Positions 12,065 through 50,395 of a DNA stretch of 64,000 nt are shown piece by piece; the stretch's first letter is position 1; each line of letters opens with the position of its first letter. A program made the translations under genes and the position numbers. Origin of the DNA: a virus. Location: IMG/VR virus record IMGVR_UViG_3300014204_007611; one strand, 5' to 3'. Under the pieces are notes generated by a model. That model had not been told where the DNA came from, searched no databases, and worked only from the letters and a program-made list of their open reading frames with translations.

Positions 12065-12093
12065 TACTTACGAAGTCATTCAAAACTAAATAC

Positions 12094-24289: not shown

Positions 24290-24766
24290 TTACTCGAATT
24301 GTTGGCACCAGAATGGTGCCCCACTCGGAGAGGCATATCCAGTAAACCCAGCCTTAGTATAGCCAGGATTGAGAATATTCGCTCGATGTCCAGAGCTGCT
24401 CATCCAAGCTGCTACAACGTCATCGACGTCGGCTTGGCCCATTGCAATATTCTCACAGCGATTTGCGCAATGAATCATCGAGTGTTGGTTTGCCATCCAA
24501 CCACAATGTTGTCTCGCTTTATGGAGGACCACGATGTCGAGAACCAAAGCTCGCAGGCCATACTTCTCACGGATAGCGTTGATGGCGTTGAGCAATTTGT
24601 GCTCATGCTCATATACTGGCGACTTATCAACAGGTGCGTTCAGTGAAGCAGTAGTACTACCGCTGCCTGAACCACCGCGATGGAAAAGACGACCACCACG
24701 AGCGAACGCTGTATTGGCAGACAATGCCACGATTACACAGATACACAGGACCCATTTCATAGTCAA
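24290..24766 (-). CDS. Secreted CAP/SCP/PR-1 (YkwD-like) domain protein with a signal peptide
   Basis: N-terminal MKWVLCICVIVALSANTAFA signal peptide. AWMSSSGHRANILNPGYTKAGFTGY and HCGWMANQH are CAP motifs, and GENIAMGQ matches the YkwD consensus. Confidence 0.6.
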   Translation of the reverse strand: MTMKWVLCICVIVALSANTAFARGGRLFHRGGSGSGSTTASLNAPVDKSPVYEHEHKLLNAINAIREKYGLRALVLDIVVLHKARQHCGWMANQHSMIHCANRCENIAMGQADVDDVVAAWMSSSGHRANILNPGYTKAGFTGYASPSGAPFWCQQFE

Positions 24767-24798: not shown

Positions 24799-25266
24799 TT
24801 AAATGCCGGTGACTCGTTGATATTGTGGCTCTACCGGACTATCAGTAGAACCGAATCCCTTACTACCACGCTCGGTCTCATCGAGGGTGCTTACTTCAAT
24901 GATGGATACTTCCGGAACTGGCAATACCAAACCTTGGATTATCTTGTCGCCCGGTTTAATAAATTGAGTGTCTTCGCTCAGATTGACAAGACAAACTAAC
25001 CATTCACCACGGTAGGTGCAGTCTATCACACCAGCGAGCCGGTGAATATTCTTCTTCGCACCCATTCCAGATCTGTCGAACAAAACAACACAGTACCCTT
25101 CTTCAATTGCTGCGGCCAATCCAGTATGAAAAATATGGCATTCACCCGGCGTAAGCTGAACGTAGTCGACTGTCGTGATATCGATACCAGCCTCTAGTGC
25201 TCCAGCCTTAGCAGGAATCTCGGCGTCAGATCGCAATTTCTGGAATTTTATCTGCATACTGGTCAA
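24799..25266 (-). CDS. dut: dUTP diphosphatase (dUTPase)
   Basis: GIDITT..., RSGMGAKK, GVIDCTYRGE and C-terminal KGFGSTD correspond to dUTPase motifs 1-5. Confidence 0.75.
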   Translation of the reverse strand: MTSMQIKFQKLRSDAEIPAKAGALEAGIDITTVDYVQLTPGECHIFHTGLAAAIEEGYCVVLFDRSGMGAKKNIHRLAGVIDCTYRGEWLVCLVNLSEDTQFIKPGDKIIQGLVLPVPEVSIIEVSTLDETERGSKGFGSTDSPVEPQYQRVTGI

Positions 25267-29095: not shown

Positions 29096-29098
29096 ATT

Positions 29099-29764
29099 AT
29101 GACAGAGAAGTTCCAACCATTGGTTATAGTTGACGGCAAACAAAAATGGGCTCACGTCTCAATTCCGAAATGTGCATGTAGCTCTATTAGACGTGCTCTG
29201 GAGAAGCATTTTAAGTTAAAACCAGTTGAAAAATATGAGATGGTCCATAGCCGGAAATGGCCGCATGTAGAATCGATGAATTGGATTTCTGAGCTTGATG
29301 ACGACTGGTATACATGGGCTATTGTCCGCAATCCTTTTGATCGGCTTGTATCAGTTTGGCAAGAAAAATGCTGTACATCGGCGGCGAGACCAAATCTTGG
29401 ACCACAGCTGCAACGTTTAGTTGGCCAGCCTTTTGATGTATTTTGCAGGACGGTGTGTGCTATTATACAAGAACCACCAGAAGCAGATATACATCTTGGT
29501 TGGTATGTCCGAGGGATTGATACACATATAGCACCGATGTCGCATTTTCTACTTCATGATGGAAAATGCGTAGCCAAAGTCATACGAGAGATGCATGAGG
29601 TAGACTCTTTTTGGTCAGGTCTACAAAAACGGTTTGGTTTTCCGGACTTAGGACATCTCAATATTAGCGTCCATAAACCGCCAGATTGTTATTATACACC
29701 AGAGCTACGACGCCTCGTTGAAGATGCTTACAGTGATGATTTACGCCTCTGGTGGAGTAAATGA
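29099..29764 (+). CDS. Sulfotransferase (Sulfotransfer_2/carbohydrate sulfotransferase-like)
   Basis: IPKCACSSIRRAL resembles the 5'-PSB loop PKxGxT, and IVRNPFDRLVS resembles the 3'-PB motif RDPxxR..S. Confidence 0.5.
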   Translation: MTEKFQPLVIVDGKQKWAHVSIPKCACSSIRRALEKHFKLKPVEKYEMVHSRKWPHVESMNWISELDDDWYTWAIVRNPFDRLVSVWQEKCCTSAARPNLGPQLQRLVGQPFDVFCRTVCAIIQEPPEADIHLGWYVRGIDTHIAPMSHFLLHDGKCVAKVIREMHEVDSFWSGLQKRFGFPDLGHLNISVHKPPDCYYTPELRRLVEDAYSDDLRLWWSK

Positions 29765-30792
29765 TGCAGTATAAAGTTGTCAATCTTGGAGACGATCCGT
29801 GGAGCAGAGACCTTAAATATGAGTTAGTTAATTTACCACATTACAAAACAGCCAAACAGTGGATGCGAAATATCGACATCCCAATGGTTGAAACAGAATA
29901 TTTTCAATGGCTAGAATCACAATTAGTGGAAAACGGCAGCGTATGGAATGGACTATTAAGTAATAGAAAAGACATCATCAGACAATATCACAATTTTAAA
30001 CATCTATTCGAAATAGCTCCAAATTTCGTAGAAGAACAGCCAACAACACAAAAAATCGATGGTGTGTCTTACTATTATGGTCCAATTTGCGTGAAGATCA
30101 GAGGCAGTGGAGAAATCAGGATTTGGGATGGTATGCACAGGACATCGATCTTGCTTGCCACCAACCATCCAATTCGATTTACTATTTGTGAGCGTGAAGA
30201 TGGATGGCTTAACTTATTGAATAGCTTGAAAACATTATATCCAACGATGATGTATCAAGCTATCCCACATCCAGACTTCGCAGATTGGGCGTGCTGCGAT
30301 TATAGTATAAAAGAGCAGCAAATATCTAATGTCGTAATGGATAACGGCATCAAATCAATACTTGACCTTGGAAGCTGCCACGGTCATGTGCTTTATAGTT
30401 TAAGGGGTATCCTGCAGTCAGCCACAGGTGTCGAATACGATCCAGTTAGATATCGCGTCTTGAAGTTGTTATTCGACAAGCTAGGGTTTGAATCATATAA
30501 CGCTAACATTTTTGATGTCGTAAACAAAACAACTAAGCACTTCGACTGTGTTTTCGCGTTGGCGGTGTTCCATCATTTTACTAGAGAAAACACTATCGAA
30601 AAATTCAATACCCTATTAGATCGAATCAGCAGCATATCAGATATGCTGCTCTACGAATTACCGGAACCGGGCGAAGAGCAGCATGCGTGGATGTACCACG
30701 ACATAGATATGCATGCGATCATTCAGTCAAGATATAGAAACAGCACAGTCATACCGATACAAAATAGGAAGATGTTGTTGCTGCAGAATTAA
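29761..30792 (+). CDS. Class I SAM-dependent methyltransferase
   Basis: ILDLGSCHGHVLYSL is MTase motif I; VFALAVFHH is a motif II-like block. Confidence 0.5.
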   Translation: MMQYKVVNLGDDPWSRDLKYELVNLPHYKTAKQWMRNIDIPMVETEYFQWLESQLVENGSVWNGLLSNRKDIIRQYHNFKHLFEIAPNFVEEQPTTQKIDGVSYYYGPICVKIRGSGEIRIWDGMHRTSILLATNHPIRFTICEREDGWLNLLNSLKTLYPTMMYQAIPHPDFADWACCDYSIKEQQISNVVMDNGIKSILDLGSCHGHVLYSLRGILQSATGVEYDPVRYRVLKLLFDKLGFESYNANIFDVVNKTTKHFDCVFALAVFHHFTRENTIEKFNTLLDRISSISDMLLYELPEPGEEQHAWMYHDIDMHAIIQSRYRNSTVIPIQNRKMLLLQN

Positions 30793-30794
30793 CC

Positions 30795-31700
30795 ATGCCT
30801 AAACCATATAGTCTTTGCATTTTGAGTTTGAAGAACCCTAATAGTCTCAATGAGTCTAGAAGCTCAGTGCATATGGTGACATGGGCATTATGGAACGAAT
30901 TCTCCAAGATGCAGCATGTCACGCTAGAATTCCAAAGTATTTATGAGCCTTTGGTTGAAATATCGCCCGATTTTGTTTTATTCCATGCCTGCTTTGGCGA
31001 ACTTGAATTTGGTAGATTGGCGGAACTACGAAAACGCGCGAAATATAAAACAATGTCATTTATGGAGCTGCCACTATCAAAAGAGTACGTCGATTATTGC
31101 TTCATATATCTGCCGCAAACGACTTTTCAACATTGCGAGGAAATATCACTACCATGCCTGTCATCAGCACTAAATGAACATATCTCAACTAAAGTGCCCG
31201 GTAGTATCCTATTAGACCACATGTGGCCTCCATATCATAGGACACAAAAAGAGTGGAGTCAATATTTATATGAGTGGCTGTCTTCTTATCGAAAACATGC
31301 AAAATGCTCGATATCACAGTTACGTAGAGGTGGGTGCGAATCGATAGAGAAATTTCCGCCTTGGGTCACCCCGATACCAGAAAAACCATATACTGAATAT
31401 TTAGATGCCACTGCGCATTTTGAGACTTACATCTTAACACATCCAGGCAGTTACGAACACAGCGTTATTGATATGGCATATCGAGGCACACGTGTGCTTG
31501 TGCCTGTAATGCACGGACAGCCATTTATTCCGAAGTCAACAATAGAGCGATTAAATCTACAAACTTTTACTAGTAGATTAGATCTGTTGGCTTTATTAAG
31601 AGCACCAACTCAAGTTAAGCATAATCGTCAGTCATTTACTGATGCTGCTGAGATTGCATTGCGAATCGACAATTACTGTCAGAAAACCTTGGAGGCTTAA
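30795..31700 (+). CDS. Hypothetical protein within the glycan-tailoring operon
   Basis: 301-aa ORF, same strand, tightly packed between two methyltransferase genes. Confidence 0.4.
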   Translation: MPKPYSLCILSLKNPNSLNESRSSVHMVTWALWNEFSKMQHVTLEFQSIYEPLVEISPDFVLFHACFGELEFGRLAELRKRAKYKTMSFMELPLSKEYVDYCFIYLPQTTFQHCEEISLPCLSSALNEHISTKVPGSILLDHMWPPYHRTQKEWSQYLYEWLSSYRKHAKCSISQLRRGGCESIEKFPPWVTPIPEKPYTEYLDATAHFETYILTHPGSYEHSVIDMAYRGTRVLVPVMHGQPFIPKSTIERLNLQTFTSRLDLLALLRAPTQVKHNRQSFTDAAEIALRIDNYCQKTLEA

Positions 31701-31701
31701 C

Positions 31702-32328
31702 ATGGATATTGCTGCCGACATCACAAAATTTAGTGATATGACCGATATTGAAAATTTCGGATCTGAATATCTAGGATATCCAGCACAACAAACCCATTTA
31801 GCTTATCAGGTATTTGCCGATTTTCTCGAAGCAATCAAACCAAGTAGGATACTTGAAATCGGTACAGGTGGTGGCGGCTTCACCAACTTCCTATTCACCG
31901 TGACAACTGAACTTGGTTTAGGCTGTCAGCTTATATCATATGACATCTGCGAACGACCGTCATATTCCGATCTCAGGGTCAAAGGAGTCGACATACAAAT
32001 ACAAAATGTTTTTGATGTCGACGATTGCAAACAACATATCAAAGACTTCATCAAACAAGACGGCACTACTCTTGTTCTGTGCGATGGTGGAAACAAAAAG
32101 AATGAATTCGTAATATTGTCCGCTGTAATCAAGCCAGGGGATTATATTATGGCACACGATTACTGCGAAAATTCAGATAAGTTCTATTGTGATATGTTCA
32201 AAAAGAGATGGAATTGGTATGAAATCTGCGACAAGGATATAGAGCAAGCATGCAACGATAATCATCTAATCCCTCACAATAAAGACGCTTTTGATAACGT
32301 AGCATGGGTCTGTAGGACCCGTGTTTGA
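31702..32328 (+). CDS. CmcI/rhamnosyl-O-methyltransferase-like SAM methyltransferase
   Basis: ILEIGTGGGGFTNFL...LCDGGNKKNEF. ATG at 31702 directly after the previous stop. Confidence 0.5.
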   Translation: MDIAADITKFSDMTDIENFGSEYLGYPAQQTHLAYQVFADFLEAIKPSRILEIGTGGGGFTNFLFTVTTELGLGCQLISYDICERPSYSDLRVKGVDIQIQNVFDVDDCKQHIKDFIKQDGTTLVLCDGGNKKNEFVILSAVIKPGDYIMAHDYCENSDKFYCDMFKKRWNWYEICDKDIEQACNDNHLIPHNKDAFDNVAWVCRTRV

Positions 32329-32353
32329 TAGATGGGTTTCCTCAGTTTTTTCG

Positions 32354-32369
32354 TACGGTCGCGACCGTA
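32354..32369 (+). promoter_or_regulatory. Perfect 16-nt palindrome, a candidate operator or weak terminator
   Basis: TACGGTCGCGACCGTA, preceded by a T6 tract, lying between the methyltransferase gene and the sbcC-like gene. Confidence 0.3.
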
Positions 32370-32406
32370 TTAATAAAATGAGACATCGAAACCCAGGTAT
32401 AAGAAA

Positions 32407-34590
32407 ATGATCGACCTAGAATCAGTCAATATCGAGAACTTCATCAGTTGGGGTCCGTATAATTCGACGCTCAAATTGGCTGGTATGGAGCAGTGCTTCA
32501 TAGTTGGCAATGTTCTAGATAGGGACGACGCATACGGTAAATCGAACGGCTCCGGTAAAAGTTCCATGATGCAGGCTATATTATGGTGCCTGTCTGGAAA
32601 AACGGTCTATAATCAAAATCCGGGCGATAAGATTCTTAATTGGTTTTCTTCCGGTAATGCCAAGGTCGGCCTAAGATTCAAAAATGGCGATGAATTAACT
32701 CGTATTAGAACTCGCCAAGGTGATACTGAGCTCCTATTTAGACGCGGCACACAAGAAATAATCAACTGCACCCTCTCAACCACTGGGAACCAACAAAGAT
32801 TACTAGATAAAGAATTAAAATTCGATTACAGCCTATTCTGTGGATCTGTTTTCTTTTCTCAATATCGACAGCCGTGGCTTGCTATGCAAGACCAGGCAAG
32901 ACGACAAGCTTTTGAACGCATCATGGGCATAGACCGTTTATCAATCTATGCCGAAGTTGCGAAAGACAAATACGACAGAGCATTAGCCGAGCAAGAGAAG
33001 AGAAAAACAAAAATAGCCGGTTTCCAATCAACCATAACCACACTTATGCAGCAGTTTGAGACTGCCCAAAGCTCGTCATCAACATTCGAATCAAGTCGCA
33101 ATGAACGGCGTGCCGCCAAAATAAAGCTGGCAAAAGAATATGAAGAAAAAGCAGCTAAATGTGTCTTGATTGATACTATTGCATTAGCAAAAAAATGGAC
33201 CATAGTCGATAAGATTAACGCTAAGATATCGGAAATTCAGTCACAGATCACAGCCGCAGATACTGGCATAACTAGTGCAGAGACTACGAGGCTAAATACT
33301 ATCATGCGTCTGCGTCAAGAAGCGCAGACAGCAAAAGATGTGGCGTCACAATCGTCGGACACTGAGGAAGAATCAATCCAAGATACGTGTGACGCCGCCA
33401 CCAAGGTCAAACAGAGTGAAATCGATGCTCTGAATAAACAGATATTGGCTATTCAGAGTAAAAAAGCCATACAAGATGGAGTGATAAGCTCGCAAAATGC
33501 AATCATCAAGAGGTGGGAAGATAAAGCGGGCAAGATATGCGTTGAATGCGAACGAGAGCTTCCGCAAGATTATGCAAACAGCAAAATCGATGGTCCTAAG
33601 TCTGTAAAAGCTACCGCAGAACATGAGATTCTAAAACTGCAAAAAGACATAGGTGCCCTCGAAGCCAAAATAGCTAAAATCAACAAACAAATCGAAAAAC
33701 TCGAATCACAGGCAGAAGCCGATATAGCGGCGGCTTCTGCAAAATCGGTGGCCGCAATAGCTGCCATCGACAAACAACTAGAAACATCAATAAGTGATGC
33801 TAATACACTCGCAGCTTCTGCGAAAGCTGATCTACAAGTCAAAAAGAAACAACTTGAACATCTGACCGTAGCAACTAAGAAGAAACTTGAAATAACAAAA
33901 CCAGAGATAACTGTCAATGAAGCGAATGCTACAAATTCGCAACGAGATACACTATTAGGGTCGATGCGTCAAGCTCTGAAGGATGCCGAGGATATCACCG
34001 CCGAAAAGAACACCCATACCAAATCGATTATTGAACTTGGGCAAGAAATCAAGAAGAATGAGGATCAAGTCAAGGCTGAGCAGAAAGACCTGGCCACATA
34101 TGATATCATTCTTACACATCTGTTGTATATACAAAAGGCTTATAGCGATCGTCGAAAGATTAAGAGCTATTTGATCAGCCGTCATCAACCATACTTCAAT
34201 TCAAGATTACATCATTACCTTGATCTATTTAGCCTAGATATCAAAGTGTCGTTGACTGATTCGTTGGGAATCGAGAGCAACCTTTGGGGCTATGACTTTC
34301 AGAGTGGCGGGGAACGTGGCAGAACCGATCTAGCTTTTATGTTCGCCGTATTCGACCTGCATCAAGGTATCCATGGTCCGCAGTGTAATATTTTGGTGCT
34401 AGACGAACCGGAAAAAGCTCTTGATGAATCTGGCCGCCAGATGCTCATAAGCGTAATCAAAGATGATTTGGCAACTAGATTCGAATCCATTTTTATCATC
34501 TCGCATAGCGATTGCTTCCACGACGTCTTTCCACACCAGATTACTGTTGAAAGAACCGATAGGTTCTCGCACATCACCGACATCAGATAA
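32407..34590 (+). CDS. SbcC/Rad50-like SMC-family ATPase (T4 gp46 analog)
   Basis: Walker A GKSNGSGKSS at the N-terminus, a long coiled-coil middle, a QSGGERG signature and a LVLDEPEKALD Walker B/D-loop at the C-terminus. Confidence 0.7.
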   Translation: MIDLESVNIENFISWGPYNSTLKLAGMEQCFIVGNVLDRDDAYGKSNGSGKSSMMQAILWCLSGKTVYNQNPGDKILNWFSSGNAKVGLRFKNGDELTRIRTRQGDTELLFRRGTQEIINCTLSTTGNQQRLLDKELKFDYSLFCGSVFFSQYRQPWLAMQDQARRQAFERIMGIDRLSIYAEVAKDKYDRALAEQEKRKTKIAGFQSTITTLMQQFETAQSSSSTFESSRNERRAAKIKLAKEYEEKAAKCVLIDTIALAKKWTIVDKINAKISEIQSQITAADTGITSAETTRLNTIMRLRQEAQTAKDVASQSSDTEEESIQDTCDAATKVKQSEIDALNKQILAIQSKKAIQDGVISSQNAIIKRWEDKAGKICVECERELPQDYANSKIDGPKSVKATAEHEILKLQKDIGALEAKIAKINKQIEKLESQAEADIAAASAKSVAAIAAIDKQLETSISDANTLAASAKADLQVKKKQLEHLTVATKKKLEITKPEITVNEANATNSQRDTLLGSMRQALKDAEDITAEKNTHTKSIIELGQEIKKNEDQVKAEQKDLATYDIILTHLLYIQKAYSDRRKIKSYLISRHQPYFNSRLHHYLDLFSLDIKVSLTDSLGIESNLWGYDFQSGGERGRTDLAFMFAVFDLHQGIHGPQCNILVLDEPEKALDESGRQMLISVIKDDLATRFESIFIISHSDCFHDVFPHQITVERTDRFSHITDIR

Positions 34591-34606
34591 TAGGAGCGTT
34601 TGAATA

Positions 34607-35791
34607 ATGGATAGCTCAGATGGCCAATCGGCGTTGGTCGCCGAGCCGCCGAGTTCTAAAACACAAAATTTTCGCGAGCGTTATTTTCCAGATATAACCG
34701 ACGAGGATTGGGACGACTGGCGATGGCAGTTAAATAACAGGTATACGACTAAAGAACAGCTAGAATCCGTCATCGACCTCAGCAGCAAAGAGAGCATGGC
34801 AATGGTGAAACTCCATTGCCTCGGAAGATTAGCAATCAACATAACGCCATATTACCTCAGTCTAATCTCACCGACCGATCCGAACCATCCACTTCGACGA
34901 ACTGTTATCCCGACTTTAGACGAATTCTATACGTCAGTCGAAGAGGCAACCGACCCTCTAGCTGAAGACAAAGACACCCCAGTTCCGAAGCTTGTGCACC
35001 GATATAAGGATAGAGCACTCCTTTTAGTAGCTGGACAATGTGCTAGCTACTGCCGATATTGTACGAGATCAAGACTAGTTTGCGTCCAAAACGCAAAACC
35101 GGCTACGCAGCCGCAACTAAATGCCGCAATTGCGTATATCAGACAAAATACCAATATCAGAGATGTCATTGTATCTGGCGGCGACCCGCTATTGTTTGCA
35201 GATGGAGACTCAATTAGAGGCGGCAAACTCGATTCGATTTTATATGAATTGCGGCATATCAAACATGTAGAAATCATCAGAATCGGCACCAAAGTACCGG
35301 TAGTGTTGCCACAACGAATCACACTGAAGTTATGTAAGACACTGAAGAAATATCACCCATTATTTATGAGCGTCCATTTTACACACCCAGATGAACTGAC
35401 ACCGGAATGTGTAAAAGCTTGTACGATGTTGGCTGATGCAGGAATTCCGTTGGGATCACAGACGGTATTACTATCTGGCATTAATGATAATATCGAAACG
35501 ATGAAATCATTAATGCATAAACTGTTGATGGCGCGTGTCAGACCATATTACCTCTACCAGTGCGACCCGGTTGTAGGAACCGCCCACTTCAGAACTCCTA
35601 TCTCAAAAGGTATAGAAATTATCGAAGGTCTGCGAGGACATACCTCGGGATACGCAATTCCAACATTTGTAGTCGACGGACCGGGCGGTCGCGGAAAGAT
35701 ACCATTGCAACCAAATTATGTGATAGGCCAAGATGAGAATGGCACTACTCTCCGCAACTTCTGCGGAGAGATCTGTCATTATCCTGGATAA
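34607..35791 (+). CDS. KamA-family radical SAM aminomutase (lysine 2,3-aminomutase/EpmB-like)
   Basis: CASYCRYCTRS is the KamA CxxxCxxC motif, in the KamA-family context ITPYYLSLISP. The gene has a TAGGAG ribosome-binding site. Confidence 0.7.
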   Translation: MDSSDGQSALVAEPPSSKTQNFRERYFPDITDEDWDDWRWQLNNRYTTKEQLESVIDLSSKESMAMVKLHCLGRLAINITPYYLSLISPTDPNHPLRRTVIPTLDEFYTSVEEATDPLAEDKDTPVPKLVHRYKDRALLLVAGQCASYCRYCTRSRLVCVQNAKPATQPQLNAAIAYIRQNTNIRDVIVSGGDPLLFADGDSIRGGKLDSILYELRHIKHVEIIRIGTKVPVVLPQRITLKLCKTLKKYHPLFMSVHFTHPDELTPECVKACTMLADAGIPLGSQTVLLSGINDNIETMKSLMHKLLMARVRPYYLYQCDPVVGTAHFRTPISKGIEIIEGLRGHTSGYAIPTFVVDGPGGRGKIPLQPNYVIGQDENGTTLRNFCGEICHYPG

Positions 35792-38406: not shown

Positions 38407-39354
38407 ATGATTTTAAATTTAAGAGTCCGACCGATTAGCAATAACGTCAAGCGTGAAATTGTGCTTCCCAAGGCCGCTAGGCCAGTCATGCGACCGCAGC
38501 AATCTGTGACGAAGGCATTGCGGGCTGTTATGAGGCCGCAGCCAATTGCAGTAGCACAGCCAATTCAACAGCCAAATCGACGGCCGCCTGTAATGCCTAA
38601 GAGGGGTGTGGCAGCAAAACAAGCGCCAGGGAAAGTCAATAAGCCGACAACTAAGGTCATCACACGTGACCCGCCTGAGGCGAGCACCAGAAAATTACGC
38701 GAGCTACACAATTCATGCATAGGACGAGTGCTGGCGATTATCGCCAATGGTCCTAGTGTGCTAGAAGTCGACACAACAAGATTGCTCCTAAATCCACGTG
38801 TTGATATTATGTCGATAAACAAGCCAGACACACGCATCTGGCCAACCAAGTATTGGCTATTCTGTGATATTTCGCAATTAAAGCGACATAATGATTTATG
38901 GTCGAGATATAATGGACTCATATTCAACTCGACGATGATTCAAGAGGTACGACCAGGCACAATATTTATCAAGAATATTCCTGGCTTTGGATTTAGCACC
39001 GATTTGGCGAGCGGTTTTCACATTGGGAGATCGAGTGTTTATGCAGCTATGCAGGTAGCGTTATGGCTTGGATATGATAAGATATATATTTTCGGTATTG
39101 ATATGGGGGCGGTGACAGTCGATGGTAAGGAGATGTTGCATTTCTATGGAGTCAACCAAGATTGCACACCTGACAGCCGAAAAAAGAGATTCACTGAAGA
39201 AGCGAAATATTATGATGATGCGAGTAGATCACTACCGCCAGAAACAAGAAAGAAATTCTACTTCTGTAGCTCATATAACAAATTCGATTTCGTAAACAGA
39301 TTCAACAAATTAGACCATCACGAAGCCATAGATATAGTTTGCAATGATGTGTAG
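38407..39354 (+). CDS. DUF115/Maf-like putative glycosyltransferase with a Pro-rich repeated N-terminus
   Basis: LAIIANGPSVLEV...IMSINKPD...IFGIDMG. The N-terminus has RPVMRPQ / RAVMRPQ repeats. Confidence 0.5.
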   Translation: MILNLRVRPISNNVKREIVLPKAARPVMRPQQSVTKALRAVMRPQPIAVAQPIQQPNRRPPVMPKRGVAAKQAPGKVNKPTTKVITRDPPEASTRKLRELHNSCIGRVLAIIANGPSVLEVDTTRLLLNPRVDIMSINKPDTRIWPTKYWLFCDISQLKRHNDLWSRYNGLIFNSTMIQEVRPGTIFIKNIPGFGFSTDLASGFHIGRSSVYAAMQVALWLGYDKIYIFGIDMGAVTVDGKEMLHFYGVNQDCTPDSRKKRFTEEAKYYDDASRSLPPETRKKFYFCSSYNKFDFVNRFNKLDHHEAIDIVCNDV

Positions 39355-39361
39355 ATAACTT

Positions 39362-39991
39362 ATGCTAACCCAAGCAATCACATGCCCGTACTGCAGTTCA
39401 GAGTTTTCAGCAGCTGTATGGGTTGACGGCAAATGCGAGAAATGCGGTGGGAATTATTATTGGTCGATGGAATCCAATACCAGTCTCACCGATAGCTGGC
39501 ATGTTATCTCTTGGGATAGAGATAGATCGATCTATGTTGCCACAACGTTGGCAAATTGGAAACGGGCCAGAGCATTTATTGACTTCTTCAAGAGTCTAAA
39601 AATCCCGATAGCGTTCGATTGGACGATATGGGGAGAAGAAATCGCTGCTGGTAAAACGCCGAGAGATATCGACCCCGATTCATTGCAACAGAAGGCGTTG
39701 CGTGAATATGATGGTGTATCGACAGCATCATATGTCCTCGTAATAGTACCTACTGGTCGCGGCACGAATTTCGAATACGGCGTTGCCTTCCAACGACTTA
39801 ATGACGTCAATCCACCAGCTATTACGATTTTGGACGAAACAGAACCAATAGAACCTGTAAGTTTTCATTATTTGCCTGGTGTCAATAGAGTGAAACACGT
39901 TAGGAATGCTATAAAAGATATTCTGAAACACTTTGATATCGACATCAAAGATACAAATGTCGATTTAATCGCCTGCGGTTTAGGGAGATAA
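39362..39991 (+). CDS. Zinc-ribbon plus nucleoside 2-deoxyribosyltransferase-like (PF05014-type Rossmann) protein
   Basis: N-terminal CPYC...CEKC. VLVIVPTGRGTNFEYGVAF resembles the GT.fE.GyA motif of the deoxyribosyltransferase/DNPH1 family. Confidence 0.35.
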   Translation: MLTQAITCPYCSSEFSAAVWVDGKCEKCGGNYYWSMESNTSLTDSWHVISWDRDRSIYVATTLANWKRARAFIDFFKSLKIPIAFDWTIWGEEIAAGKTPRDIDPDSLQQKALREYDGVSTASYVLVIVPTGRGTNFEYGVAFQRLNDVNPPAITILDETEPIEPVSFHYLPGVNRVKHVRNAIKDILKHFDIDIKDTNVDLIACGLGR

Positions 39992-39993
39992 CA

Positions 39994-40185
39994 ATGCTTG
40001 ACCAGAACAAAATGCCATCGAAGCCGGTAGTGCCGGAAGGTACGAAGCAGCAGAAGACATTTGCTGGTCCTCATGGTGGCGGTACCGCTTACAACCAATT
40101 GGCGGTTGGCACTAACTTCGCTGTCCATAATCCAATTCCGGGACATACCCAGAAGCAGAACGTTGAAATCAAGAAGCCGAAGTGA
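39994..40185 (+). CDS. Hypothetical small protein
   Basis: 63-aa ORF in a tightly coupled array. Confidence 0.3.
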   Translation: MLDQNKMPSKPVVPEGTKQQKTFAGPHGGGTAYNQLAVGTNFAVHNPIPGHTQKQNVEIKKPK

Positions 40186-40367
40186 TGCCAGATGAGCTCT
40201 ATTTTGTGACGTGGTGCGATCCGGCCAAGTATAATATCGGACCGGAGCAGGAATATAAATGGTTCTCTGAATTAACTAATGCGGAAGCTTTCGCATACCG
40301 CAAAGAGAAAACAGACCATTGTGAACATGTTTTGGTAATCCACTACCAAAGAGTGCAGAGCAAATGA
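40182..40367 (+). CDS. Hypothetical small protein
   Basis: ATGA overlap with the upstream ORF. Confidence 0.3.
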   Translation: MMPDELYFVTWCDPAKYNIGPEQEYKWFSELTNAEAFAYRKEKTDHCEHVLVIHYQRVQSK

Positions 40368-40368
40368 T

Positions 40369-40722
40369 ATGGCGCTTGTCGATGAACTATTCGCTGTTCG
40401 CGATCAAATAGCAGCATCGGCGCAGGCAGTCTATGACGAATGGACCCAAGATGAAGAAGGGTTAGACGAGCAATATGGTGGTGGCGGTATTTGCGATGAA
40501 GTGCAGAGAGCCATGGCAGACGTGATATCAAATATTGAGTGCGAGCTAGAAGATGGTGGTTGGGAAGGCGACGATCACGCCAATCTAATCGTATCAAGAG
40601 ATAACGAACGATATCTTGTCGACATACCTGCACAGACTTACGAGTCTGGTGGCGGGATGAATTGGAGAAAGATACCCGATGTCGTTATTACTCCGAATGA
40701 CGTAATTATTGTTGCTATTTAA
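40369..40722 (+). CDS. Acidic hypothetical protein
   Basis: 117 aa, Asp/Glu-rich. Confidence 0.35.
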   Translation: MALVDELFAVRDQIAASAQAVYDEWTQDEEGLDEQYGGGGICDEVQRAMADVISNIECELEDGGWEGDDHANLIVSRDNERYLVDIPAQTYESGGGMNWRKIPDVVITPNDVIIVAI

Positions 40723-40736
40723 TATTTCTTATATCT

Positions 40737-41501
40737 GTGTTAGTACTGTTTTCTAGTAGTTGTTATGTATTTGAAAATAACAACATTCTAAAAACCGGAC
40801 ACAGAAAAATGCTATATTACATAAGCCAAAAACTCGAACTGGATATAATGCAGGCAAGTGAGCTGGGCGAGGCTATGGAACTTGCTCACGTTTACAAAAT
40901 GGGTGCGATAGTCGTTCACCCAGATCTTGTTGCCGACGCATCAATGCAGCGTGTCAAAAGGCAGGCATCATATAAAATCCTGACCACAGTCGACTGGCCA
41001 AAAGGCGACAAAACTGGGGTCAGCAAATTCCACACGATGTCAATTCATTCTTTGTCATGTGACGGTTTCGAGATTGCACTTGGAACTAAATCGCCTGGCG
41101 AGACAAAAGCAGAGACGCTGGCGATTACTGCGTTTATCAGACAGCATCTCCCGCGAGTACAGGAGATCAGATTTGTTCTTGGTTGCCTATCTAGAGAACA
41201 ATCCGATATCAACAATCTATGTATGGCGATCAAAGAGATACCGGCTCCGAATTTATTGCGCACTGATATCAATCTGCGATGTGCTCAAGCAAAGGCCAAT
41301 ATATCTGCACATAATGTATCTTTAGCAGCAATACAAGCGTGTATCAACAGGCCAATTAAGCTGTGCGGTAACATCAACTCCGCAAAAATTATAGCCTCAT
41401 GTAAGGCACATAGATATGGTGTCAGTCTCAAGCAAGCCCAAACAATCATTAAGGAGCTTCGAGACAACCCTTTAAAGATCGAAAAGATCTTTAAGAGTTA
41501 G
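40737..41501 (+). CDS. Hypothetical protein (possible TIM-barrel enzyme)
   Basis: 254-aa ORF; an alternative ATG lies at 40809. The weak resemblance to a DeoC-type aldolase is not convincing. Confidence 0.35.
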   Translation: MLVLFSSSCYVFENNNILKTGHRKMLYYISQKLELDIMQASELGEAMELAHVYKMGAIVVHPDLVADASMQRVKRQASYKILTTVDWPKGDKTGVSKFHTMSIHSLSCDGFEIALGTKSPGETKAETLAITAFIRQHLPRVQEIRFVLGCLSREQSDINNLCMAIKEIPAPNLLRTDINLRCAQAKANISAHNVSLAAIQACINRPIKLCGNINSAKIIASCKAHRYGVSLKQAQTIIKELRDNPLKIEKIFKS

Positions 41502-41513
41502 AAAGGTCATCAA

Positions 41514-41717
41514 ATGACCGCTAGCGCCATCAAAATTGGGATGTTGGTGCGCATTTATAACCAAGAGCATATCTGGCACAATGAAATAGGAATTGTTCGC
41601 GTGGTTGGGCCTATATTTAGCAGGATCGAGCTACTAGGAAAACTAACACATATACCCAATCATTGGTTAGTGGAGGTTGATGAAGGGCAACCAAACGTCA
41701 AGGGGAACATAAAATGA
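41514..41717 (+). CDS. Hypothetical small protein
   Basis: 67-aa ORF with an ATGA junction to the next gene. Confidence 0.3.
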   Translation: MTASAIKIGMLVRIYNQEHIWHNEIGIVRVVGPIFSRIELLGKLTHIPNHWLVEVDEGQPNVKGNIK

Positions 41718-42055
41718 TAGAATTCGACATCATTGATGAGCTTGGAGACAACGCCGAATTGCTGACAAAATCTGATCGATGGCTTGCGGTGCTGGAGGCT
41801 AAGCTTGGTCAGAGTCTGACAATTCTTTTACATGATCTCGAACAAGTCCAAACAGCGATCAGAATTAAGCAACGTCTGCAGCAGAATAATCGGGTAGCAG
41901 TTAAGCGATCTATAAATCGCGGTGGAATCTCAGATGAGGTAATCGAAATTTTGCCACTTCCTAGAGCAGTCAAGGTTGCTAATAAAACCAATCATAGCGA
42001 TCAGATAAATGTTTGGGCTGCTGATGGATATGACGTCCAAGCAGTACTGGTCTGA
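41714..42055 (+). CDS. Hypothetical protein
   Basis: 113-aa ORF. Confidence 0.3.
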   Translation: MIEFDIIDELGDNAELLTKSDRWLAVLEAKLGQSLTILLHDLEQVQTAIRIKQRLQQNNRVAVKRSINRGGISDEVIEILPLPRAVKVANKTNHSDQINVWAADGYDVQAVLV

Positions 42056-42096
42056 TCTATCGCATTCGCGCTGCTGCGTATGTATGTAAAGGTTGG

Positions 42097-43380
42097 ATGC
42101 CTTTCGACAAAATCAACGCAGAGGAATATATGTCAGCCAATTATCCAAATCGCAGAACTACCAAAACATATCCATTCACACCAGGCAAAAGTGGCGAGAT
42201 GGTGGTCGTGACGACCGACGGTGGCGCTGGATCATCAGGCAAGGGATCTCTTAATTCTTGGTTAGCTGACAAATACGATTTCCATCTAGCGACCAACAAT
42301 TGGATGACGAACGCTGGCCATTATACGGAACTTGACGACGGCACACGGATACTGGTCCAGCACATTCCGTCAGCATTCATCAACAAGAACACGCGACTCT
42401 ACATCAACGCCGGTGCTGCGATCGATCTGAAAACGTTGTTCAGCGAAGTAGCAAACCTCGAATCGCTCGGCTTCCAGATTCGCGAAAGATTGATCATCCA
42501 TCCGCTAGCCAACGTAATAACTGAAGAGAACAAGCAATATGAGCGTGAAACCATCAAGACTGGTAGCACGTTCAAGGGATGTGGTGCGGCTATCGCAGCA
42601 AAGGCTATGCGACTACCACAGCAAAAACTGGCGAGAGACTACGAGGAACTCCGCGAGTTCTGCACAATCGCCGATTTAACGATGGAGTTGAATCACGGCA
42701 TAGCCAAATATGGCATGCGAGTTCTTGTTGAAGGTTCGCAAGGCGTCGATCTTGACCTCAACTTCGCCGAATACCCATATTGCACCTCGCGGCAAACGCA
42801 CCCGACACAACTTGTAGCAGATGCTGGTCTTCCTGGTAGAGCAATCACAAATGTCGTCATCAATTTACGCACCAATCCGATACGCATTAGCAACGAGTCG
42901 GCTGCAACCGGTGAGCAATGCTACACCGGCAATTACTGGGAAGCAAGAGAAATCGGGTGGGAAGCTGTAGCGAAGCAGGCCGGATATGATAACTTCGATG
43001 AGTTCGTCGAAGAATACAGATATGCAATGATGACGTCCGTCACCAAGAAGGTCAGACGCATCTTCGAATTCCCGACCGAAAGGGCGAAATATGTGAACGC
43101 TCTGGCTGGCGGTCTGCTCAGAGACGGCCGCGTTCTCTATAGCCTCAACTTCATCAATTTCGTTGACAGAACCGTCAAAGGCAAGACGACATACGAAGAA
43201 GTCTTCACGCCAAAGGTTGTTAATTGGTTGCGGATGCATTTGCAGCCGGTGCTCGAAAATAATGGCACGTATGTTGCCAGTGTGAACGAAAGCTGCGATG
43301 ACTTGTCTGATATGTCGCAATTCTTCGGATTGCATTGGGTCAGAACTGGACCGAAGCACAGCCAAATAGTCGAGTTATGA
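42097..43380 (+). CDS. Adenylosuccinate synthetase (PurA) family enzyme; a divergent phage homolog that could be PurZ-like
   Basis: The protein is colinear with E. coli PurA: a GAGSSGKGS P-loop where PurA has GDEGKGK (the catalytic Asp is replaced by Ser), TNAGHY for GHNAGH, TIKTGSTFKGCGAAIA for IGTTGRGIGPAYE, VEGSQGVDLDLNFAEYPYCTS for [21 protein letters not shown], and KKVRRIFEF for GRRRRTGWLD. Confidence 0.65.
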   Translation: MPFDKINAEEYMSANYPNRRTTKTYPFTPGKSGEMVVVTTDGGAGSSGKGSLNSWLADKYDFHLATNNWMTNAGHYTELDDGTRILVQHIPSAFINKNTRLYINAGAAIDLKTLFSEVANLESLGFQIRERLIIHPLANVITEENKQYERETIKTGSTFKGCGAAIAAKAMRLPQQKLARDYEELREFCTIADLTMELNHGIAKYGMRVLVEGSQGVDLDLNFAEYPYCTSRQTHPTQLVADAGLPGRAITNVVINLRTNPIRISNESAATGEQCYTGNYWEAREIGWEAVAKQAGYDNFDEFVEEYRYAMMTSVTKKVRRIFEFPTERAKYVNALAGGLLRDGRVLYSLNFINFVDRTVKGKTTYEEVFTPKVVNWLRMHLQPVLENNGTYVASVNESCDDLSDMSQFFGLHWVRTGPKHSQIVEL

Positions 43381-44186
43381 ACGTAAAGCTGGCAGTTTAT
43401 ACTGATGAAGTATTCGACGACCCTGATAAGGCTTGTGAGCTATTAGCCACAAAGAAGATCACTGGTGTTTGCTTACGCCGTGGCTGGTGTCGAGAAATCT
43501 ACAATATGCCAGATAATGCCATCAGTATTCTAGGTGGCATACTGTCGAAGCACGGCTTATTGCCAGTTCTTTTGCATACTGAAATCGGTTGTGTCAATCC
43601 GAGTCAATTGGCTGCAGAAGAACCAAAACTTGTTAGAGCGATGCAGATATGCAAATACTTGAAATGTAAAGCCGTTCGAATTGGCATCGGAACGATGTCG
43701 GCGAAGGATGATAGCGAATCGATCCAGAAGTGGTTAACTACTATTTCTGGGCTCAGTATATCGTACGATGTTCAGTTGTTATTCGAGCCAGAGACAAATT
43801 CTTATTATAATCAAGCAGCGGCAATAGCTATATTACTGAACAAGTTTAGACGTTTAAATCTGCTATTCGACCCGGCGATGTTAGTGATGCGTACCAAAAA
43901 CAACCCTTTTGTAAAGTTTTGGTCGCTGTTGAAATCGCGAATCACGTTCGTCGACATCCACGATTTCAAAACCGGCGATGCAGCTAAACCAGCTGGGTTT
44001 GGCGATGCGCAGTTAGATGTTTTGGTAGCTGACGCTTTAGCATCAAACTTCTCTGGTTGGTTTTGTTTAGAGCCGGGCCTTGGAAGGCGATATGGTGATG
44101 CGACAACCAAAGATCAAACATTCTTACGTGCTTTCGACGCATTCGAGGCATTACTTCAAAGAATACAATTACCAAAAATACTTTGA
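43377..44186 (+). CDS. Xylose-isomerase-like TIM-barrel (sugar phosphate isomerase/epimerase family) protein
   Basis: 270 aa. ATGA overlap with the PurA-like stop. The fold assignment is by pattern only. Confidence 0.4.
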   Translation: MNVKLAVYTDEVFDDPDKACELLATKKITGVCLRRGWCREIYNMPDNAISILGGILSKHGLLPVLLHTEIGCVNPSQLAAEEPKLVRAMQICKYLKCKAVRIGIGTMSAKDDSESIQKWLTTISGLSISYDVQLLFEPETNSYYNQAAAIAILLNKFRRLNLLFDPAMLVMRTKNNPFVKFWSLLKSRITFVDIHDFKTGDAAKPAGFGDAQLDVLVADALASNFSGWFCLEPGLGRRYGDATTKDQTFLRAFDAFEALLQRIQLPKIL

Positions 44187-48273: not shown

Positions 48274-48326
48274 GCAGTATTACGCTGCTTAGCTATAGTC
48301 AGTAACGTAACAAAGGATTGTTCGCT

Positions 48327-48503
48327 ATGTTAGTATTATCTCGCAAGAAGAACGAGAGCATCGTTATCAACGACGACATCACCATTGTTGTTGTTGAAAT
48401 CCGTGGAGACAAGGTGCGTCTTGGAGTCGAGGCTCCAAAGGAAGTGCCAGTGCATCGCAGAGAAGTTTTTGATGCGATTCATCGGAATAACTCAGCGACA
48501 TGA
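48327..48503 (+). CDS. csrA: CsrA/RsmA-family carbon storage regulator homolog
   Basis: MLVLSRKKNESIVINDDITIVVVEIRGDKVRLGVEAPKEVPVHRREVF is colinear with E. coli CsrA ([48 protein letters not shown]). ATG at 48327 with an AAAGGA ribosome-binding site. Confidence 0.75.
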   Translation: MLVLSRKKNESIVINDDITIVVVEIRGDKVRLGVEAPKEVPVHRREVFDAIHRNNSAT

Positions 48504-48877: not shown

Positions 48878-49071
48878 TAATGCCCGATTCTCCAGCGCGG
48901 CCACCAGACGTAAATGATGAGCAATGGCAAAAATTTATGAGCGAGTACCATATCACAGTATTGGTGCCGCTTGAAGTACACCTTCGCGAACGCGCTAGAT
49001 TGGTGAAAATTATTCTTGTAATGTTAATTCCGTCAGCCGCCATCATTATAGCAGCGTGGTGCGGATTATAA
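48868..49071 (+). CDS. Hypothetical small membrane protein
   Basis: 67 aa with a hydrophobic C-terminus. Confidence 0.3.
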   Translation: MGMIMPDSPARPPDVNDEQWQKFMSEYHITVLVPLEVHLRERARLVKIILVMLIPSAAIIIAAWCGL

Positions 49072-49659
49072 CGCTCTTCGCCAATTCTCCCATACAAACT
49101 CATAATCATAAGTCAAATAGTGAGTTTGACTCAAGCGATCTCTAATCGCTTGCCGCCTTGCTTCTGCATGTGGCGTAAACTGATGAAATTGTACTTGTAA
49201 ATCTCTGACTATATTGATACTACCAGTATTGATCATATGATCTAATAAGTCATATTCAGCGCCTTCGATATTCATTTTCACTAGCCGTATCTGTGGCAGT
49301 GCTTGTTCACGAATTACATCATCAATCGAAATAATTCGTATCTTCTCCTGCTGCCCGCTTTGTGACAGAATACTCGAAGCATCACCATTCACCGTGATAT
49401 TGCAAACTGTCGTTACTGGGCCGATGCCAGCACGATAAACATATGCACCAGTACCAGCTAAAGCCTTAGTTGTCATGGCGTAATATTCTGCGACTGGTTC
49501 GAACGCTATGATTCTGCAATGGTAACGATCATATATCTGGCGGCTCCAAACACCATGATATGCGCCGCAGTCGAAAACAACATCACTAATATTGATGCGA
49601 TAATCTAATCTCAAAGTCTCATCGCCATGATCAGCAAACCAACGGTCAAAATCAGGCAT
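49066..49659 (-). CDS. FkbM-family SAM methyltransferase
   Basis: VFDCGAYHGVWS...IIAFEP is the Methyltransf_21 pattern. Confidence 0.55.
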   Translation of the reverse strand: MPDFDRWFADHGDETLRLDYRINISDVVFDCGAYHGVWSRQIYDRYHCRIIAFEPVAEYYAMTTKALAGTGAYVYRAGIGPVTTVCNITVNGDASSILSQSGQQEKIRIISIDDVIREQALPQIRLVKMNIEGAEYDLLDHMINTGSINIVRDLQVQFHQFTPHAEARRQAIRDRLSQTHYLTYDYEFVWENWRRAL

Positions 49660-49660
49660 T

Positions 49661-50395
49661 TTAGTCCCTCAGTCGTAAGTCTGTGATATTCATTCCACAG
49701 TTGCGTGCATCTACCATTCTTGGCCAGTTGCCTTCAATAAATTCGACATCATGCATGCCTGTGCGATCCTCGACGAGTGGGCTTAATATACGTCCATTGC
49801 TTAAAGTAGCAGCCCACCAGCTAAACGACGAATTCGCACGCAATATTACATTAGCGTTCATCAATGACACAAAATCGTCAATAAATGGCATGCCCATATC
49901 TATCAAATCCTGAGCTTGTTGGCGGCTTCCTTCTTGAATCCATGTAATATCAGTAGGATTCAAATCGAATTTCTTACAAGCTTCAACATATGAATTTTCG
50001 CTAATTAGACAATAAATATTGCTGAGCCCAACATAATCGCCTCTACGTATATGTGCGGCTATCAGATAACGAGTCGTAAATCTGCGTTGCCATTCGTCTT
50101 TAAGACGAAACCAAGCTTTTAATCTCGACCGCGACATGAGATTTATAGCGGCTTGCGATTGAAAATACCCGCTCAAAATAATGTTAGTTCTTCCAGTCGG
50201 GATCTCATCGAATCCCGTGTGCGGTAAGTCGTAGTCAAGTGGAGGGTCTGAGATTTCGAAAATCCGCTGGCCTATCCATCCAGGAGTCAATAGCATAGCA
50301 TTCTGTGATTCGGCATAAGCACGAGCAAATGCATATTGAAAAAGTTGATTGCCAAAGCCACCAACAAACGACACGCCGACGACTTTTCGAGTCAT
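49661..50395 (-). CDS. Glycosyltransferase family 11 (alpha-1,2-fucosyltransferase-like)
   Basis: GGFGNQLFQYAFARA (GT11 motif), AAHIRRGDY (HxRRxD motif I) and SSFSWWAA (motif IV). Confidence 0.7.
   Translation of the reverse strand: MTRKVVGVSFVGGFGNQLFQYAFARAYAESQNAMLLTPGWIGQRIFEISDPPLDYDLPHTGFDEIPTGRTNIILSGYFQSQAAINLMSRSRLKAWFRLKDEWQRRFTTRYLIAAHIRRGDYVGLSNIYCLISENSYVEACKKFDLNPTDITWIQEGSRQQAQDLIDMGMPFIDDFVSLMNANVILRANSSFSWWAATLSNGRILSPLVEDRTGMHDVEFIEGNWPRMVDARNCGMNITDLRLRD

Follow-up and report, generated by a model that had tools for sequence, protein, structure and literature searches.

This study concerns a PurA-family gene in the virus record IMGVR_UViG_3300014204_007611 of IMG/VR, analysed within a stretch of 64,000 nucleotides (64 kb) that we call the window. 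The gene occupies positions 42097..43380 on the + strand, and its product (the query) is related to adenylosuccinate synthetase (PurA) and carries a serine in place of the catalytic aspartate. We propose, with a probability of roughly 0.6, that the query is a PurZ-type enzyme representing a third, deep and previously uncharacterised lineage whose members occur chiefly in large and jumbo phages. An earlier examination of the sequence alone (the original prediction) had named the gene a PurZ-like candidate. This view is supported by the serine at the catalytic position (Ser46), by PurZ-unique substrate contacts, by N354 in the nucleotide-donor site, by a PurZ profile as the top-scoring hidden Markov model (HMM) and by serine in 260 of the 266 nearest homologs, from which we infer the activity and the presence of 2-aminoadenine (Z) in the phage DNA.

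The maximal open reading frame (ORF) starts with ATG and encodes 427 amino acids (aa). Its likely start is Met12 (position 42130), chosen by the gene caller of the source assembly and giving a protein of 416 aa (P0001); the starts of most relatives fall near query residue 21-25. The sequence similarity to adenylosuccinate synthetase far exceeds what chance would give. Matches to Pfam PF00709 (E=1.4e-26), to PHROG 1211, '2-aminooxy adenylosuccinate synthetase' (E=9.9e-47), and to proteins of the Protein Data Bank (PDB) confirm the 427-aa ORF as a PurA-family member, as originally predicted. The top solved structures by sequence are those of phiVC8 PurZ (6FKO/6FM0, 9e-29, aligned residues 33-326), followed by P. 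horikoshii PurA (2e-28), the PurZ0-type 7VF6 (3e-26) and S-2L PurZ 7ODX (1e-20); E. coli PurA is a much weaker match (3e-11). The further claim that the protein is colinear with adenylosuccinate synthetase is essentially right down to the C-terminal motif (LNFINF in the query, aligned with LNFCNY of phiVC8), apart from some 30 additional aa at the N-terminus and lineage-specific insertions.

Among 18,950 NCBIfam models, the query scores highest on the PurZ model NF038379 (176.9 bits), ahead of archaeal PurA NF003295 (147.8 bits) and bacterial PurA TIGR00184, where its 107.1 bits lie well below the 395-bit cut-off for canonical PurA. The preference for the PurZ model over the archaeal PurA model, by about 30-36 bits, is shared by the clade member P0095. 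Here and below, P-numbers denote homologous proteins and L-numbers the loci or contig regions of homologs.

Residues at diagnostic positions were compared in an alignment of 274 sequences, and are given in E. coli PurA numbering unless stated. In PurZ, Asp13 is replaced by Ser, and S23, T273 and Q308 of S-2L PurZ (equivalent to S14, T262 and N297 of phiVC8) are PurZ-unique substrate contacts; furthermore, PurZ has another residue in place of PurA R303 and carries a Val that presses against C2' (PMC8342488). The PurZ residues that make room for the 2-amino group are F12, S14 and T262; those that stack on ATP are F295 and Y298 (bioRxiv 10.1101/2025.10.22.683976). All 147 phage PurZ and PurZ0 sequences of one study have Ser, and 99% of the sequences in its E. 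coli PurA clade have Asp (PMC12884076). The query P-loop reads D41-G-G-A-G-S46-S-G-K-G-S, with S46 aligned to D13 of E. coli PurA and to S14 of phiVC8 PurZ, which bears out the original reading of GAGSSGKGS with Asp13 replaced by Ser. Within the clade described below, 92 of 94 aligned members have Ser at this position and the remaining two have gaps. The diagnostic positions are as follows:

PurA D13: S46 in the query, PurZ-type
PurA G298: T313, equal to T262 of phiVC8
PurA T300, T301: V315, T316, as in PurZ
PurA R303: K318, equal to K267 of phiVC8
PurA K331 (GTP-specifying): F352, equal to F295 of phiVC8
PurA D333 (GTP-specifying): N354, equal to N297 of phiVC8
PurA V334: F355, equivalent to Y298 of phiVC8, a conservative change of Tyr to Phe
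PurA V-T-S motif: C229-T230-S231, as in PurZ
PurA N38, H41, T129, R143, Q224, R305: kept in the query, shared catalytic residues

All the PurZ-specific contacts (S46, T313, N354) are therefore present together with K318, as are the ATP-site stacking residues F352 and F355, and the query motif TSVTKKVRR corresponds to TTVTKKVRR of phiVC8. Both the PurZ-like and the shared catalytic residues are invariant or nearly so across the clade. Because the PurZ0 of phage Herb retains Asp at the D333 position, where the query has N354, the donor site reads as PurZ-type (ATP-type) and not PurZ0-type. In place of the canonical PurA set of Asp13, K331, D333 and R303, the query has S46, F352, N354 and K318. 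The inspection of substrate-specificity residues suggested in the original prediction thus finds S46, T313, K318, F352, N354 and F355 PurZ-like, with Ala at position 12.

A word-indexed search of 5.8 billion proteins returned 721 homologs. About 95 of these share 48-100% identity with the query; their contigs measure up to 214 kb, and most of them bear either no name or the label 'adenylosuccinate synthase'. Scanning 1.84 billion representatives exhaustively with HMMER yielded 1,291 matches at E<=1e-10. Asp at the catalytic position occurs in one metagenomic homolog (P0202) and in the E. coli reference, and Ala at position 12, as in the query, in 145 of the 266 nearest sequences. Trees were built by neighbour joining from Kimura distances with 100-200 bootstraps, on a set of sequences without archaeal Asp-type PurA. 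They place the query in a clade of 103 metagenomic sequences (bootstrap 100), nested among Ser-type sequences. The phylogeny against PurA and PurZ that had been suggested as a check therefore yields a separate clade among Ser-type enzymes, in a tree whose deep bootstraps are below 40.

IMG/VR relatives that are 81-93% identical to the query sit on contigs of 234, 269, 364 and 388 kb, and the query therefore belongs to a jumbo-phage lineage. No DNA-level relative was found when 14 kb around the gene were compared by megablast with 50,697 phage records. Among cultured phages, the nearest protein is the 'purA' product of Bacillus phage vB_BpsS-140 (MH884512), with 37% identity across 81% of the query. 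For this protein and for the AGSC-type proteins of the sister group, the archaeal PurA model is slightly ahead of the PurZ model. Sister-group members and other relatives also show unusual architectures, with an N-terminal MutT-like NUDIX fusion, a GNAT fusion or an intein (LAGLIDADG plus Hint); the fused or interrupted proteins are P0097 (747 aa), P0105/P0109-P0114 (~510 aa) and P0117 (502 aa). Neighbours of the NUDIX fusion at locus L047 include two further NUDIX genes, His_Phos_1, HAD and DHFR.

Further downstream on their contigs, three of the four closest relatives carry a second PF00709 gene (165 bits) of the Asp type, with the P-loop GFGDE(A/G/C)KG, at the following positions in IMG/VR relatives:

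L048:19142-20347, Asp-type PurA paralog
L050: ~19190-20372, Asp-type PurA paralog
L052:10001-11185, Asp-type PurA paralog

This paralog shares 29% identity with E. coli PurA (97 bits, phmmer) and 18% with the query. It retains D13, K16, H41, Q224, T239, R305 and D333 and is changed at the IMP contacts N38 (Q), T129 (C), R143 (Y or H) and V273 (H), as well as at T300 and T301. By synteny, it is predicted to lie about 15-16 kb beyond the 3' end of the window on the source contig. The presence of two PurA-family paralogs in one genome argues that the Ser-type enzyme is not simply a redundant PurA.

The PurZ-like gene lies in a conserved cassette of seven genes (38407-44186):

38407..39354, + strand, 315 aa, with a basic N-terminus ahead of a 'GNGPS'-type domain
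39362..39991, + strand, zinc ribbon plus nucleoside-2-deoxyribosyltransferase (NDT/Rcl) fold, by predicted fold
40809..41501, + strand, deoxyribose-phosphate aldolase (DERA) fold, by predicted fold; maximal ORF from 40737
41514..41717, + strand, small conserved ORF of 67 aa
41714..42055, + strand, small conserved ORF of 113 aa
42097..43380, + strand, the PurZ-like gene
43377..44186, + strand, xylose-isomerase-like TIM barrel (AP_endonuc_2), PF01261 8.5e-10

The gene order is kept in four close relatives and in L016, whose PurZ-like protein is 62% identical to the query. It also recurs in L022, L023 and L027 around the PurZ of another lineage, which has a WGSCGKG P-loop and the canonical F295 and Y298; the L022 protein reaches 223 bits on the PurZ model. 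That identical cassettes flank this WGSC-type lineage suggests that the two PurZ lineages are functionally equivalent in the cassette slot. The product of the first gene has a weak WaaZ-like match (TIGR04437, 3.7e-05, far under the cut-off), and the gene is kept in L011-L014, L016, L022 and L023. Of the two small ORFs, the 67-aa one has no Pfam match, and the 113-aa one has no match in Pfam, NCBIfam or PHROG. Homologs of the latter lie directly upstream of the PurZ-like gene in L011-L014, L016, L022, L023 and L027. In 11 of 28 loci, among them the rearranged L007 and L015, the 67-aa ORF and the DERA-fold gene are found with the PurZ-like gene. The ATG of the TIM-barrel gene overlaps the stop codon of the PurZ-like gene (ATGA, at the junction GTTATGA), and the two genes are translationally coupled; they occur together in 9 of 28 loci, and the source-contig gene call for the TIM barrel is 11248-12057 in L042. 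A profile search of PDB sequences gave no meaningful match for the TIM barrel. The original prediction had noted both a TIM-barrel gene at 43377, which the Pfam match bears out, and a deoxyribosyltransferase-like neighbour at 39362, which holds at fold level.

Neither the NDT-fold nor the DERA-fold protein has a significant sequence match in Pfam, PHROG, NCBIfam or profile searches of PDB sequences, and hhalign comparisons of the DERA-fold family with E. coli DeoC and of the NDT-fold family with the Herb DmtZ-DutZ fusion were likewise not significant. The DERA-fold family comprises 56 homologs, nearly all on large-phage contigs. In its alignment with DeoC, D102 and K201 correspond to E88 and K184, both invariant, and the Schiff-base K167 aligns with an invariant Arg151, the alignment being one of low identity. 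Judged by the DERA catalytic residues Lys167, Lys201 and Asp102, the product of 40809-41501 thus appears to depart from a canonical aldolase, with Arg151 and E88 at the first and last of these positions and a lysine (K184) at the second. The family has also gained the invariant lysines K65 (in a WPKG loop) and K73.

The NDT-fold protein may be a deoxynucleoside monophosphate (dNMP) N-glycosidase or transferase. Two NDT-family enzymes, DmtZ and NDT-M2, have recently been tied to Z-phages (PMC12884076; bioRxiv 10.1101/2025.10.22.683976): DmtZ hydrolyses deoxyadenosine monophosphate (dAMP) and moves deoxyribose 5-phosphate onto the Z base (PMC12884076), and NDT-M2 prefers deoxyadenosine (dA) (bioRxiv 10.1101/2025.10.22.683976). 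Since the NDT-fold protein has no detectable homology to DmtZ, it would have been recruited independently if it does serve in the DmtZ role. We also considered that dAMP might be disposed of in two steps, release of deoxyribose 5-phosphate by the NDT-fold protein and its cleavage by the DERA-fold protein; this idea is weakened by the apparent change of Lys167 to Arg.

Other members of the clade and superfamily place the PurZ-like gene among genes of deoxynucleotide metabolism. Within the 103-member clade, L009 (P0095, 48% identical to the query, on a contig of 213 kb) has a YfbR/HD gene about 5.5 kb downstream whose 'RWCIVQ' corresponds to the DatZ 'RW-x-I' signature (W20/I22 of S-2L DatZ), a signature confined to contigs with deoxy-2-aminoadenosine (dZ) in a metaGPA study. 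A PurB-like lyase lies about 7 kb upstream in the same locus, with TIGR00928 as its top model (179.7 bits, under the cut-off). PurB-like genes are found near PurZ-like genes in L030 and L033 as well, and these neighbours in the three loci point to a succinyl-purine product. In L046 (P0075, 59% identical), the neighbours are NrdD/NrdG, ThyA, deoxycytidine monophosphate (dCMP) deaminase, dUTPase_2, a Tmk-like kinase and a fusion of uracil-DNA glycosylase (UDG) with PolA. A kinase-dCMP-deaminase fusion lies directly upstream of the PurZ-like gene in L007, and neighbours in other lineages include ThyX, a PD-(D/E)XK nuclease and the UvsW helicase.

The window corresponds to positions ~9,551-73,550 of the source contig (ENA ERZ27247350 k141_1430509, 104,990 bp). 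We surveyed the window with about 18 kb of flanks (about 82 kb in all) and about 20 kb of syntenic sequence from relatives. The resulting ~100 kb of the lineage amount to roughly between one quarter and one third of a genome of ~270-390 kb. Pfam, NCBIfam and PHROG scans, together with tblastn and phmmer searches seeded with DatZ, MazZ, DpoZ, DmtZ-DutZ and PurB-like sequences, all agree: no DatZ (HD/YfbR), MazZ (MazG/DUF550), DpoZ (PolA), DmtZ/DutZ or PurB-like gene is present in this sequence, and a search seeded with the HD protein of L009 gave irrelevant short matches only. The statement that the window holds no DatZ, MazZ or DpoZ homolog is thus upheld; the genome-wide search for these genes suggested at the time was carried out over the window, its flanks and the syntenic sequence of relatives, with none found. 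The dUTPase mentioned in the original prediction as lying elsewhere was located, as follows:

24799..25266, - strand, canonical dUTPase, PF00692 8.5e-20; NF001862 114.3 bits, above the cut-off of 103

This gene is 17 kb from the PurZ-like gene and outside the cassette. Its match to the DutZ half of the Herb fusion is weak (2.5e-07), and identification as DutZ is unsupported because the protein passes the canonical dUTPase equivalog cut-off.

The replicative polymerase is encoded upstream of the window on the source contig. It is a DnaE-type (family C) Pol III alpha split in two genes:

L044:12983-15619, first gene of the split DnaE-type polymerase
L044:16512-19313, second gene of the split DnaE-type polymerase

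A volactin-family gene adjoins the pair, and the first gene has a faint LAGLIDADG (intein-like) match between two PHP segments. The downstream flank holds a deoxythymidine monophosphate (dTMP) kinase (Tmk), an MgsA-type ATPase and small ORFs; a weak ART-PolyVal (ADP-ribosyltransferase) match lies beside the dTMP kinase at L043:6845-7249. The window also encodes a DNA helicase, SbcD, an SMC/SbcC-like ATPase and a DHH phosphoesterase, as well as a tailoring repertoire of many glycosyltransferases, three radical-SAM enzymes, a sulfotransferase and several methyltransferases. Genes for glycan or small-molecule tailoring are dense at 26466-35791, 49066-50395 and 61133-62856 and include GT1, two radical-SAM/SPASM enzymes, the sulfotransferase, several SAM methyltransferases, an FkbM methyltransferase, GT11, GNAT and a lysine-2,3-aminomutase-like radical SAM (LAM_C 2.9e-23).

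Several features of the window and its relatives stand apart from nucleotide metabolism. A CsrA homolog at 48318-48503 (PF02599, sequence MLVLSRKKNESIVI...) is kept in four close relatives. CAP/SCP-domain proteins are encoded at 12055-12717 (+) and 24290-24766 (-), and also at L048:13698-14096. A T4-type prohead core protease (PF03420, Peptidase_S77) adjoins an SPFH/Band-7 protein (57939-58682 (-), 58824-60110 (-)), and 23061-23798 (-) matches DUF7873 over its full length (E=1.4e-95). The ORF at L048:17010-18047, kept in three relatives, combines a J-domain-like N-terminus (HPDRF) with a protein kinase domain (PF00069, 1.1e-08). No transfer RNAs were found in the 64 kb window.

Comparison with known systems places the query closest to the PurZ of phiVC8 and S-2L (6FM0/6FKO, 7ODX; NF038379). 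It resembles them in fold, in best sequence match and in Ser for the catalytic Asp; it keeps T262, K267, R269/R270, F295 and N297 of phiVC8 PurZ, with an aromatic residue at the Y298 position, and it shares the C-T-S and TVTKKxRR motifs and the ATP-type donor site. It differs from them in its identity of only ~29-31%, its separate clade, Ala at position 12, Glu at the S273 position, a length greater by ~60-80 aa (the N-terminal extension and insertions) and the absence of adjacent DatZ, MazZ and DpoZ. The genomes differ as well: the query comes from a jumbo phage with a DnaE-type polymerase, whereas the phiVC8/S-2L type comprises sipho- or podoviruses of 40-70 kb with PolA or PrimPol. The PurZ0 of actinophages (Arthrobacter phage Herb/Wayne type; 7VF6) is likewise Ser-type and has an NDT-family partner, DmtZ, where the query has the NDT-fold cassette gene. 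However, PurZ0 has the P-loop GGQ(F/Y)GSEAKG and the GTP-type Asp at D333, in contrast to AGSSGKG and N354 in the query. PurZ0 genomes carry DutZ, DmtZ, DUF5664 and DpoZ-1 (PMC12884076), none of which is detectable with the query, and the dUTPase of the window is canonical. Archaeal short-type PurA (P. horikoshii, 2D7U/5K7X; NF003295), the proposed ancestor of PurZ (PMC8342488), matches the query in length class and nearly equals phiVC8 PurZ in pairwise score, but its model scores 29 bits below the PurZ model, and the query has Ser instead of Asp and a PurZ-type donor site. BpsS-140 'purA', finally, is a stand-alone gene of the Ser type (P-loop VGSEGKG) in a genome for which neither DatZ nor MazZ nor PolA is annotated; unlike the query, it comes from a siphovirus of 55 kb, lies outside the 103-member clade and prefers the archaeal PurA model.

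We favour a PurZ-type activity, for which the following scheme would apply, drawn by analogy with the solved structures of PurZ. ATP would phosphorylate O6 of deoxyguanosine monophosphate (dGMP), with Ser46 replacing the general-base Asp and making room for the 2-amino group; aspartate would then displace the phosphate to give N6-succino-2-amino-2'-deoxyadenylate (dSMP). Adenylosuccinate lyase, from the host or, in some relatives, encoded by the phage, and nucleotide kinases would convert dSMP to the triphosphate dZTP for phage DNA. The enzyme would work without nearby DatZ, MazZ or DpoZ, within the conserved cassette, whose NDT-fold protein is possibly a DmtZ-like dAMP glycosidase or transferase, and the phage would replicate with its DnaE-type polymerase.

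Several observations weigh against this reading. Canonical PurZ (phiVC8, Bm1, PMBT28, S-2L, L031/L032) and PurZ0 (Herb) fall outside the 103-member clade, and the deep branches that would relate them carry the low bootstraps given above. With no DatZ, MazZ or DpoZ in the surveyed sequence, no mechanism for excluding dATP is visible, and use of Z by a DnaE-type polymerase is undocumented. The NDT and DERA assignments come from predicted folds, and the DERA-fold protein has apparently lost its catalytic Schiff-base lysine, tentatively judged from the alignment. The query score of 176.9 bits is also below the curated NF038379 cut-off of 300 bits; this cut-off is strict, because the L031 PurZ, used as a control from a classical DpoZ-PurZ-MazZ-DatZ cluster, itself gets only 266.7 bits. 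The tentative wording of the original prediction was justified, given the sub-cut-off score, the deep clade of its own, Ala at position 12 and the lack of partners within ~82 kb.

The active site raises a further objection, and with it an alternative that we consider unlikely: a PurZ-derived enzyme with an altered substrate or product. Such an enzyme would keep the chemistry of O6 phosphorylation and amine displacement but apply it to another 6-oxopurine (deoxy)nucleotide, for example deoxyinosine monophosphate (dIMP), deoxyxanthosine monophosphate (dXMP) or an N2-/C2-modified guanine nucleotide, and with its NDT-fold, DERA-fold and TIM-barrel neighbours it would supply a purine modification that is not plain 2-aminoadenine. 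The guanine-pocket aromatic (F12 in phiVC8, Y21 in S-2L) is Ala44 in the query, and Ala occupies position 12 in 90 of 94 aligned clade members (the deeper P0089 and P0095/L009 differ), where PurA, PurZ and PurZ0 all carry Trp, Phe or Tyr. The S273 position is Glu, and lineage-specific insertions adjoin the nucleotide loop, for example ~18 aa between W252 and T262. The sub-cut-off PurZ score, the missing DatZ, MazZ and DpoZ, a conserved seven-gene cassette unlike described Z clusters, and the Lys-to-Arg change in the DERA-fold protein, which suggests new chemistry on a pentose phosphate, fit such an enzyme too. Yet the residues known to contact the dGMP 2-amino group, aspartate and ATP are all PurZ-like, and the pocket of S-2L PurZ is lined by the backbone of residue 21 (PMC8342488), an arrangement in which Ala need not shift specificity. 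The clade member L009 has PurB-like and DatZ-like genes, and conservation of the cassette could be mere synteny among related jumbo phages.

A variant of the PurZ reading more than a contradiction of it, and one we hold rather improbable, is that the enzyme is a working PurZ serving partial or conditional Z incorporation, or a dGMP/dATP sink for pool manipulation, in a genome that is not fully Z-substituted. The ~100 kb examined hold no dATPase or Z-selective polymerase, and the genome keeps a canonical dUTPase and Tmk; S-2L PurZ can act as a dATPase, and the S-2L triad in E. coli converts a significant part, not all, of the DNA adenine (PMC8342488). Against this, the surveyed part is roughly between one quarter and one third of the genome, and the NDT-fold protein could remove dAMP as DmtZ does (PMC12884076). 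Very improbable, in our view, is an auxiliary metabolic PurA that converts inosine monophosphate (IMP) to adenylosuccinate, boosting AMP/ATP during infection with Ser tolerated. Pfam and several databases do call relatives 'adenylosuccinate synthase', P. horikoshii PurA is pairwise as close as phiVC8 PurZ, and for the sister group and BpsS-140 the archaeal PurA model slightly outscores the PurZ model. But this account has to contend with the near-invariant Ser of the clade at a position where the E. coli PurA clade keeps Asp13, with the PurZ-type N354, F352 and Lys in place of D333, K331 and R303, with the TIGR00184 score, with the separate Asp-type paralog of close relatives and with gene contexts that are deoxynucleotide modules. 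More speculatively, and again as an unlikely outcome, the Ser-type enzyme with its Ala12-enlarged pocket, the NDT-fold protein as glycosidase or transferase, the DERA-derived protein without its Schiff-base lysine, the coupled TIM barrel (sugar-phosphate-isomerase-like) and the two small proteins could form a purine-remodelling module independent of DatZ, MazZ and DpoZ, leading to Z-DNA through DnaE or to an undescribed purine base. The Asp-type paralog of the close relatives would, by synteny, be present in this phage as well.

PurZ homologs have already served as the basis for predicting over 2,000 Z-viruses (PMC13128860), so a PurZ-like gene in a metagenomic phage is unsurprising in itself. 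In the literature found, Z-genomes are characterised in small sipho- or podoviruses, with PurZ accompanied by DatZ, MazZ and DpoZ or by DutZ and DmtZ. We found no paper in which PurZ is connected with jumbo phages, DnaE or a DERA-like partner, and no description of the seven-gene cassette. The PurZ survey of Tong et al. 2023 (Nat Microbiol) may already include the 103-member clade. Relative to the literature found, what is new is the jumbo-phage hosts, the DnaE-type replicase, the absence of known accessory sets, the NDT-fold/DERA-fold/TIM-barrel cassette, the Ala12 signature and the co-resident Asp-type paralog. The clade also carries a warning for annotation: about 100 public proteins called 'adenylosuccinate synthase' or 'hypothetical' are Ser-type and are missed by the curated PurZ HMM cut-off.

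If the clade makes dZ nucleotides, as we propose, the Z trait would reach phages of 230-390 kb, and a family-C (DnaE-type) replicase would copy Z-DNA. The predicted Z content would thus probably extend Z DNA chemistry to very large phages. dATP would then be excluded by other means, perhaps by an independently recruited NDT-fold enzyme, which would make the lineage another case of 'functional convergence' (PMC12884076). Should the substrate instead be new, the gene would be a pointer to an undescribed DNA base.

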